Of a DNA stretch of 50,189 nt, positions 17,167-17,478 are shown in pieces (the stretch's first letter is position 1; each line of letters starts with the position of its first letter). This DNA comes from an uncultured Candidatus Saccharibacteria bacterium (GTDB taxonomy: Bacteria > Patescibacteriota > Minisyncoccia > Phycocordibacterales > UBA2100), in NCBI GenBank assembly GCA_964419595.1, contig CAYQQI010000001.1, positions 1 to 50,189 of the forward strand, in the 5' to 3' direction. Position numbers and translations under genes: made by a program. The notes under the pieces are model-generated. The model saw only the letters and a program-made list of their open reading frames with translations. It searched no databases and was not told the origin of the DNA.

Positions 17167-17478
17167 ATGAAGATCTTCGAGAACGTGAGCAGCAAGATCG
17201 GTACATACGCTCGGAATGCGGGAAATGTGGCACTGATGAGTATCGGTTTTTTTATCGTGTTTTTCACCGCGTACTCACACGGTTTGCGAGGTGGACAGCC
17301 GGGCTACACCATCCACGGAATTGATGTTGCGCACGCTGAAGCTCCGGCATGCACCGGCGACGCAGCGGGATGCGGAAGCGGGGGGGACAGCGGCAGCGGC
17401 GGTTGTTCCGGCAGCGACTCGGGAGGTTCCTCAGGAGCAAGTTGCGGTAGTTCCGGTGATGACGGCGGTGGTGGGTGA
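17167..17478 (+). CDS. candidate RiPP precursor 1: signal/anchor helix plus Cys/Gly/Ser/Asp-only C-terminal core
   Basis: Trimmed from ORF 17053..17478 to MKIFENVSSKIGTYARNAGNVALMSIGFFIVFFTAY...HAEAPACTGDAAGCGSGGDSGSGGCSGSDSGGSSGASCGSSGDDGGGG*. It is divergent from YcaO-1. A homolog lies at 31793..32077. Confidence 0.6.
   Translation: MKIFENVSSKIGTYARNAGNVALMSIGFFIVFFTAYSHGLRGGQPGYTIHGIDVAHAEAPACTGDAAGCGSGGDSGSGGCSGSDSGGSSGASCGSSGDDGGGG

Follow-up and report, generated by a model that had tools for sequence, protein, structure and literature searches.

What is made by a small gene that stands back to back with a YcaO-type enzyme gene in a bacterium of the Candidate Phyla Radiation (CPR, Patescibacteria)? 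The question arises from the first 50,189 nucleotides of contig CAYQQI010000001.1 (assembly GCA_964419595.1, an uncultured Candidatus Saccharibacteria bacterium), hereafter the window. In it, an open reading frame (ORF) of 103 amino acids (aa), named W1 (17167..17478, + strand), lies 113 bp from the divergently transcribed gene of the cyclodehydratase-type enzyme YcaO-1. A preliminary description of this DNA had put W1 forward as a candidate precursor of a YcaO-modified peptide. Our analysis establishes W1 as a real, conserved gene. We consider it probable, at roughly 60%, that its product gives rise to a linear azol(in)e-containing peptide (LAP), ribosomally made and modified by YcaO and SagB, and that the leader of this precursor is a membrane-targeting signal-anchor.

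W1 is a conserved gene

The W1 ORF starts with an ATG at 17167 and ends with a TGA at 17476-17478. Its length, its distance from YcaO-1 and a C-terminal stretch of 44 residues (residues 60-103, PACTGD...GGGG) that uses only P, A, C, T, G, D and S and holds four Cys were all re-measured and agree with the preliminary description. The basic N-terminal segment (residues 1-17, 17167..17217; K2, K10 and R16, net charge +2 ahead of the helix) is predicted to be cytoplasmic. It is followed by a hydrophobic helix (residues 18-36, AGNVALMSIGFFIVFFTAY, 17218..17274; 19-aa Kyte-Doolittle mean 1.72) which contains the motif GFFxxFF of the family described below, with G27 and F32 near-invariant in the family alignments. 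This arrangement had been likened to a signal-anchor, and the pattern holds across the family. A linker found in all members (residues 37-54, 17275..17328) leads to the junction A-H-A-E-A-P (residues 55-60, 17329..17346), where the family motif counts point to an AxA-like possible cleavage site after A57. The remainder (residues 58-103, 17338..17475) is by composition a hypervariable, acidic Gly/Ser/Asp/Cys tail and the putative core. Beyond the AHA motif it comprises 4 Cys, 11 Ser, 18 Gly and 5 Asp; the Cys positions are partly common to the orthologues, and two orthologous Cys are Ser in W1.

Could W1 be a chance ORF in GC-rich low-complexity DNA? No Shine-Dalgarno-like sequence precedes its ATG and a scan of the 113-bp spacer for consensus promoters found nothing, which would fit such an ORF. 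Against this stands the conservation of the protein, with the same architecture, in 119 sequence clusters, together with conserved synteny: the ORF recurs next to YcaO genes, with orthologues in the loci L005, L006, L008, L009 and L013. W1 thereby withstands a refuting condition named in the preliminary description, a lack of conservation at syntenic loci. Six close orthologues share an aligned ATG start and an in-frame end, the remaining five reading frames hold stops, and no tandem DNA repeat was found under the W1 tail. A gene for exactly the W1 protein had already been called on a 264-kb contig of GCA_021733565.1, and three independent read assemblies contain it as well. Saturation of the synonymous sites in most pairs leaves the few dN/dS estimates obtained (0.2-0.5) with little weight. 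Because of the syntenic conservation, the 119 clusters, the aligned start codons, the closed alternative frames and the call in the source assembly, W1 is a real, conserved gene, and we regard its origin by chance as effectively refuted by the comparative data.

A family with a constant head and a variable tail

A word-index search with the 103-aa W1 protein recovered only W1 itself. Using a profile of the N-terminal 65 aa, we retrieved 17 proteins from the indexed collection and, at E <= 1e-3, 119 clusters (50% identity) among 1.84e9 representatives, nearly all members being 58-150 aa long and built in the same way. The named sources are Kaiserbacteria, Minisyncoccota, Paceibacteria and Nomurabacteria, that is, CPR/Patescibacteria. 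A genome scan added four more metagenome-assembled genomes, labelled Saccharibacteria, Nomurabacteria and Paceibacteria, in which the small ORF again lies upstream of the partner gene introduced below. A degenerate DNA pattern for G-[VI]-A-H-A-D-A-P, searched in metagenomes, gave one true member (L032) out of 120 among the matches listed.

The family survey comprises 124 sequences. Their order of parts is constant: a short basic N-terminus, the GFFxxFF hydrophobic segment, a linker of about 20 aa, the junction motif and the tail. The best 15-aa Kyte-Doolittle mean has a median of 2.57 and a minimum of 2.13. Ahead of the AHADAP junction, the linker carries a conserved [FLIH]-G-x-[DG]-[VI] element. 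The junction itself, [AV]-[HYN]-A-[DE]-[AV]-P, is near-invariant (AHAD in 70 sequences, AYAD in 20, AHAE in 7, and others); the two residues past the tetrad are AP in 68/124 and VP in 20/124, and a -3/-1 pattern [AV]-x-A is present in 122/124. The preliminary description had suggested testing whether a CTGDA junction is conserved. An element C-T-[GDT]-[GD] does recur, but only in some members, and it is the AHADAP-type motif that is conserved.

The tails are hypervariable in length (5-91 residues, median 35) and in sequence. They are of low complexity, dominated by Gly (31%), Ser (18.5%), Asp (14%), Ala (9%) and Cys (9%), and have a median net charge of -5. At least two Cys are found in 84 tails and none in 22; 39 tails end in Lys, 30 of these in Gly-Lys. 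Some consist of just five residues (ETVGK) and others are rich in Tyr and Gln. The residue ahead of a tail Cys is Gly (186) or Ser (99), and that ahead of a tail Ser is Gly (227) or Asp (226); a small residue in this position fits the preference of azole synthetases such as McbBCD. Two near-identical genomes illustrate how head and tail differ: between L010 (1..198) and L014 (6780..6989) the leader DNA is 100% identical, whereas the tails are set apart by two indels of 12 and 28 nt, and both end in Lys directly ahead of the stop codon.

We found no description of the AHADAP family in the literature. Judged by these comparisons, the small proteins appear to form a previously undescribed CPR family which joins a conserved membrane-targeting head to a variable tail. 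Since a conserved head followed by a hypervariable Cys/Ser/Gly/Asp tail resembles the layout of precursors of ribosomally made peptides that are modified after translation (RiPPs), the family reads as precursor-like. An additional N-terminal extension of about 10 residues (M-V-x-V-x-K-T-Y-S) was considered as the mark of a YcaO-linked subfamily and rejected, as L136 and L138 lack it and nevertheless have YcaO and SagB genes.

The tail type follows the enzyme set

YcaO-1 (479 aa, 15614..17053, - strand; PF02624, E = 1.5e-43) shares its operon with a SagB-type flavin mononucleotide (FMN) dehydrogenase, SagB-1 (14871..15617, -; TIGR03605, 106 bits against a cutoff of 78.4; PF00881). The window encodes two further YcaO proteins, and YcaO-1, YcaO-2 and YcaO-3 end in PHPFS, PHPFS and PHPFP, which we take to resemble the proline-rich PxPxP C-terminal motif of azoline-forming YcaO enzymes from thiazole/oxazole-modified microcin (TOMM) pathways. 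The NCBIfam matches to the SagD family (below its trusted cutoff, see below) and to the SagB family are likewise in keeping with enzymes that form azoles, and no TfuA was found.

To compare the loci, we searched the window proteins by tblastn against all fetched loci and combined the results with the called genes. Long Gly/Ser/Asp tails, with or without Cys, are found in W1, L005, L006, L008a, L008b, L009, L012, L013, L032, L136 and L138, and a divergent YcaO gene accompanies 11/11 of them. Wherever the contig reaches far enough, a SagB-type gene comes after this YcaO gene, and it is usually followed by a gene for a fusion of a phosphoribosyltransferase (PRTase) with a beta-propeller. Short or Tyr-rich tails occur in L007, L011, L014 and L015; YcaO is present in the flanks of 0/4 of these loci, which instead encode a multi-transmembrane (multi-TM) protein of about 460 aa and a membrane protein of 64-80 aa, with CapK-like ligases in addition in L014 and L015. 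For the association of tail type with YcaO (11/11 versus 0/4), Fisher's exact test calculated by hand gives p = 1/1365, a value that is indicative only because the loci are phylogenetically non-independent.

Two loci help to define what the enzymes follow. The L138 tail consists of Ser, Asp and Gly and has no Cys, yet the locus has YcaO and SagB genes, so that a dependence of the YcaO association on Cys specifically was rejected. L136 combines a Cys-rich tail ending in Gly-Gly-Lys with both enzyme modules. The multi-TM gene adjoins the small gene in 5/5 assessable loci with a Gly-Lys-type tail end. The preliminary description had proposed the Asp-rich tail as a possible substrate for three carboxylate-activating enzymes of the island; this idea finds no support in the relatives, where the ligases go with the multi-TM protein and Gly-Lys tails and not with Asp content.

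The multi-TM proteins form an orphan family of about 435-500 aa, with two members in the window (6820..8331 and 25594..26901, both -) and others in L007 (727..2103), L014 (5248..6621), L015 (5516..6922) and L136 (3334..4710). Their mean column identity is 62%, and the gene of the conserved 64-80-aa membrane protein always comes after theirs. Searches of Pfam, NCBIfam and PDB sequences gave no match, and an AlphaFold2 (AF2) model built from two sequences was unusable (pLDDT 39). A possible likeness to HTTM/vitamin-K carboxylase-like or SdpB-like proteins was considered, and we do not claim it.

The co-variation of tail and enzymes bears on an alternative in which W1 stays unmodified and is an acidic low-complexity protein, either anchored in the membrane or secreted, such as an envelope component that binds cations or metals or forms disulfides. 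It would work together with the tetratricopeptide repeat (TPR)-like partner encoded downstream, and YcaO and SagB would act elsewhere. The occurrence of the small protein and this partner in L007, L011, L014 and L015, which have no YcaO, speaks for such a role, as do the uniformly acidic tails and the genes for DsbA-like and DCC1-like thiol-disulfide oxidoreductases that come after some of the Cys-rich cassettes. However, the presence of YcaO and SagB tracks the tail type, including the Ser-only tail of L138, and no other candidate substrate ORF adjoins these YcaO genes. The two Cys-to-Ser differences in W1 would be tolerable for heterocyclisation and not for disulfides or metal ligands, an argument weakened by the high Ser content of the tails. 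Overall, we consider an unmodified W1 unlikely.

Membrane topology and a downstream partner

Immediately downstream of W1 lies the gene for a 370-aa protein (17498..18610, +), and such a gene is found 3' of the small gene in every locus examined. Homologues, synteny and an AF2 model (pLDDT 82) describe it as an N-terminally membrane-anchored protein with an N-terminal helix and an all-helical, TPR-like solenoid. The homologues are 32-57% identical, and on every one of their contigs a similarly built small ORF lies immediately upstream. Comparison with PDB folds gave weak, generic TPR matches (E at least 2.8e-3, TM-score about 0.4), the top ones being peptide-binding TPR proteins; we draw no functional conclusion from this likeness. 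The preliminary description had dismissed the long ORF 17291..18610, which overlaps W1 in another frame, as an artefact. That is correct for its 5' extension into W1, which is spurious, but from the ATG at 17498 onwards the ORF is a real and conserved gene, and the partner orthologues begin at an aligned M-x-R-T-x-H-L without overlapping the small gene.

In every family member checked, the N-terminus is net-positive and the tail net-negative. According to the positive-inside rule, the basic flank of a membrane helix stays in the cytoplasm, and the charge pattern therefore predicts an N-in/C-out orientation for the small protein, with the N-terminus of W1 probably behaving as a signal-anchor. 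The TPR-like partner, the further TPR proteins of the locus, and a DsbA-like protein and a rhodanese near a second small gene (W2, see below) likewise start with a basic segment and a hydrophobic helix, and because of this anchoring the conserved neighbours are predicted to act outside the membrane. YcaO and SagB lack such a segment. That all partners are predicted to be extracytoplasmic and YcaO cytoplasmic is a further point for the unmodified envelope protein discussed above.

Regarding the criteria for a Sec signal peptide, W1 and its family have the basic n-region and the hydrophobic h-region, and their [AV]-x-A pattern agrees with the -3/-1 rule for signal peptidase I. In a canonical Sec signal peptide, the AxA site follows the h-region by about 3-7 residues. 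In the family this gap measures 14-33 aa (median 23), whereas a typical secreted protein of the window (18733..19053) shows the usual short distance from core to site. Cleavage by signal peptidase at AHA|E is thus plausible, although not at a textbook position. The preliminary description had suggested that Sec export with signal-peptidase cleavage could explain the apparent lack of an exporter and a leader peptidase. The lack itself was confirmed in so far as none of the approximately 40 window ORFs scanned has an ABC exporter or peptidase domain; signal-peptidase cleavage in its canonical form does not agree with the position of the site.

This distance also bears on a more conventional scheme, namely a LAP that is processed in the cytoplasm. 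Here the hydrophobic segment would be a leader-recognition helix, a dedicated protease would cut at AHA|E and an unlinked transporter would export the product. The AxA-like site is too distant from the helix for a textbook signal peptide, and the [FLIH]-G-x-[DG]-[VI] element of the linker is similar to the FxxxB leader motif of streptolysin-S-type precursors; both features would suit the scheme. Yet the hydrophobic stretch is of transmembrane grade in every member, the family keeps the positive-inside pattern, all conserved neighbours have membrane anchors of their own, and neither a protease nor an exporter was found in any of the approximately 15 loci examined. Given the hydrophobicity across the family, a conventional LAP with a soluble leader is less likely, and we rate this scheme as even more improbable than an unmodified W1.

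A proposed route and its weak points

For a W1 that is the precursor of a YcaO/SagB-modified peptide, we propose the following route, in which heterocyclisation and its timing relative to export, membrane topology, junction cleavage and the role of the product are all inferred. The 103-aa protein would be made in the cytoplasm, where YcaO-1 would cyclodehydrate Cys, and probably Ser, of the tail (residues 58-103) to azolines, which SagB-1 would then oxidise to azoles. The basic N-terminus and the helix (residues 18-36) would insert the protein N-in/C-out via the general secretion machinery, with no need for a dedicated ABC exporter. Outside the cell, the tail would either remain tethered or be freed by a cut at A-H-A|E-A-P, and it would meet the membrane-anchored TPR-like protein encoded immediately downstream.

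Several observations weigh against this route. Some tails joined to this type of leader (ETVGK and the Tyr/Gln-rich ones) could not serve any YcaO, so that being a YcaO substrate is not an intrinsic property of the family. The YcaO proteins of the window score 165-178 bits against the SagD-family model TIGR03604 (YcaO-1, 171 bits), below its trusted cutoff of 219, and YcaO-1 is very distant from all solved YcaOs, with at most 25 bits. Pfam and NCBIfam searches assigned no E1-like, Ocin-ThiF-like or RiPP recognition element (RRE) domain in the operon, and the N-terminal approximately 100 aa of YcaO-1 received no assignment. The long spacing between the hydrophobic core and the AxA-like motif is atypical for signal peptidase I, and the strong hydrophobic anchor might take the protein to the membrane before the cytoplasmic enzyme acts. 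Finally, the fixed site of the locus beside a ribosomal-protein operon, described below, looks more like core envelope physiology than like a typical antibiotic cluster, and it would also suit an unmodified envelope protein.

A wider reading would accommodate both kinds of tail. The AHADAP signal-anchor leader may be a general carrier of Paceibacteria-type CPR at a fixed chromosomal site, whose cores are paired either with YcaO/SagB (Gly/Ser/Asp/Cys tails) or with the multi-TM protein, its small membrane subunit and CapK-like ligases (Gly-Lys ends). The products would be exported by general secretion to a dedicated extracytoplasmic TPR-like receptor or chaperone and would have a role at the envelope or the symbiont-host interface rather than as classical antibiotics. 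We put this forward tentatively, as a possibility more doubtful than the modification of W1 itself.

The surrounding island

The divergent spacer between YcaO-1 and W1 (17054..17166; 113 bp, with the YcaO-1 ATG at 17053 according to the call in the source assembly) contains an extended -10-like element, TGGTATCAT / GGTGGTAT(C/T)AT, at 17110..17125. In an alignment of nine intergenic regions the element is also present in L005 and L006, and in these three closest loci it lies approximately 25-45 nt 5' of the small-gene ATG. An Rfam scan of the intergenic region gave as its sole match a dinG RNA motif in the 5' leader of YcaO-1 (17063..17148, -), which at 24.8 bits against a gathering threshold of 46.9 (E = 0.067) is probably due to chance.

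A composition scan of the window had first picked up a second small gene, W2 (94 aa, 31793..32077, +), with the helix, an ANADAP junction and a Cys-rich tail. It is a paralogue of W1 (pairwise E = 4e-4; family hidden Markov model (HMM), E = 6e-15), and the family HMM run against the six-frame translation of the window recognises exactly two ORFs, W1 and W2. A paralogue of the TPR-like partner follows W2 (32085..33185, +; BLASTP E = 1e-5 against 17498..18607) and has orthologues in L008, L012 and L032. Together with a membrane-anchored rhodanese (31212..31766) and a DsbA-like thioredoxin (33187..33864), W2 and its partner make up a second cassette (31212..33864). No YcaO gene adjoins W2 in the window, where the nearest, YcaO-3, is approximately 3 kb away; the orthologous cassettes in L008 and L012 do adjoin YcaO, and in both the same gene order is seen with a divergent YcaO gene.

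Two membrane-anchored TPR proteins (19185..20800, +), recognised by Pfam TPR matches and synteny, come after the W1 cassette in most loci. The YcaO-SagB operon further includes a PRTase/beta-propeller fusion assigned by Pfam (11882..13516, -), whose orthologues in L008 and L009 (70-72% identity) immediately follow SagB, with further counterparts in L032, L136 and L138. With 29621..31348 (-) the window has two such fusions of a PRTase-like domain and a PQQ/BamB-like beta-propeller, and their approximately 70% identical orthologues stand directly after SagB in all five of these loci. A third SagB/nitroreductase-like ORF (28507..29235, +) is divergent from YcaO-3. Because it runs into the 5' end of the YcaO-3 ORF in its long version, which starts with GTG (26907..28754), the true YcaO-3 start is probably further downstream. 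Three unassigned proteins that are mutual paralogues (13582..14865, -; 20686..22026, +; 5522..6697, -) all match one region of L014; one of them belongs to the YcaO-1 operon, and at least 13582..14865 encodes a membrane-anchored, Cys- and His-rich protein.

Directly downstream of the whole island lies the S10/spc ribosomal-protein operon (L3, L4, L2, S3, L6, S5 and SecY; 36414..49779). The island also stands beside the ribosomal-protein operon in L015 (10056..) and L136 (10742..), and this fixed site in two other genomes suggests a vertically inherited core locus rather than a mobile cluster. Within the ribosomal-protein cluster of the window, an insert (43754..45736) encodes a PaaX/Cas2-like protein (43754..44335, -), a methyltransferase (44409..45191) and a GNAT acetyltransferase (45194..45736).

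Relation to known systems

The preliminary description had called the W1 core microcin-B17-like. As regards composition this is apt: like McbA, the substrate of McbBCD (PMC6395948, PMC6722960), W1 has a core dominated by Gly, Ser and Cys, with Cys and Ser mostly after Gly, and in both systems genes for a YcaO-type cyclodehydratase and an FMN dehydrogenase adjoin the small precursor gene. The likeness ends there. Sequence homology of W1 to McbA was not detected. McbA carries a leader that is short and soluble, depends on the E1-like McbB, and is cut by TldD/E and exported through McbEF, whereas W1 has a signal-anchor leader of about 57 aa with an AHADAP-type junction and a strongly acidic core; no McbB-like, TldD/E-like, ABC (McbEF) or McbG-type immunity genes were found in the window.

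Sharrar et al. (2020, PMC7298704) reported LAP clusters combining YcaO with a nitroreductase from 93 CPR genomes. The window belongs to the same phylum-level group, which includes Parcubacteria, has the same enzyme pair and would register as a CPR LAP cluster of this type. One cluster, from Microgenomates, is shown in that paper, with a peptidase and a precursor of 84 aa; the text consulted does not describe a membrane-targeting leader, an AHADAP motif, a TPR-like partner or a co-variation of tails with enzymes.

Bufferins are RiPP precursors with a Sec signal that are modified before export (PMC11626156). The route proposed for W1 would share with them (BufA, MNIO) a precursor with a secretion signal, Cys-derived heterocycles made in the cytoplasm and general Sec export without a dedicated exporter. 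The two differ in that bufferins depend on MNIO/DUF2063 enzymes and have a canonical signal peptide with a nearby site, a folded core and demonstrated copper binding, whereas the W1 system has YcaO/SagB. As no MNIO (DUF692) or DUF2063 partner was found among the window ORFs scanned, the relation is one of analogous logic only. The term 'signal peptidase' does not occur in a 2023 review on how RiPP leaders are removed (PMC10885120).

The YxzE-like family PF25184, itself a computational bacteriocin prediction only (PMC1538908), resembles our family in small size, an N-terminal hydrophobic segment and a Gly-rich tail. W1 and W2 do not match its profile, and three relatives score below threshold over most of it (17.6-26.1 bits against a cutoff of 40); membership was rejected on these sub-threshold scores. 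Known already, then, are the LAP/TOMM kind of system and the existence of LAP clusters in CPR. What appears to be new is a precursor family with a membrane-targeting leader and an invariant junction, its obligate TPR-like partner, the modular pairing of tails with enzymes and the fixed S10/spc site.

Implications for CPR biology

If our interpretation of W1 is correct, the precursor, YcaO, SagB and the TPR-like partner make up a compact set that can be tested by heterologous expression. Signal-directed export of RiPPs, for which MNIO-type bufferins are the case documented so far, would then also occur with YcaO chemistry. The match between tails and enzyme modules is a natural experiment for substrate recognition. 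It also draws attention to an orphan family of membrane enzymes whose predicted substrate feature is a Gly-Lys at the C-terminus. In CPR/Patescibacteria, which are episymbionts of ultra-small size and for the most part uncultured, many of the LAP clusters already counted would, on this interpretation, use a kind of precursor that is absent from the models of RiPP-mining tools, with a membrane-targeting leader, general export and no dedicated protease or exporter.

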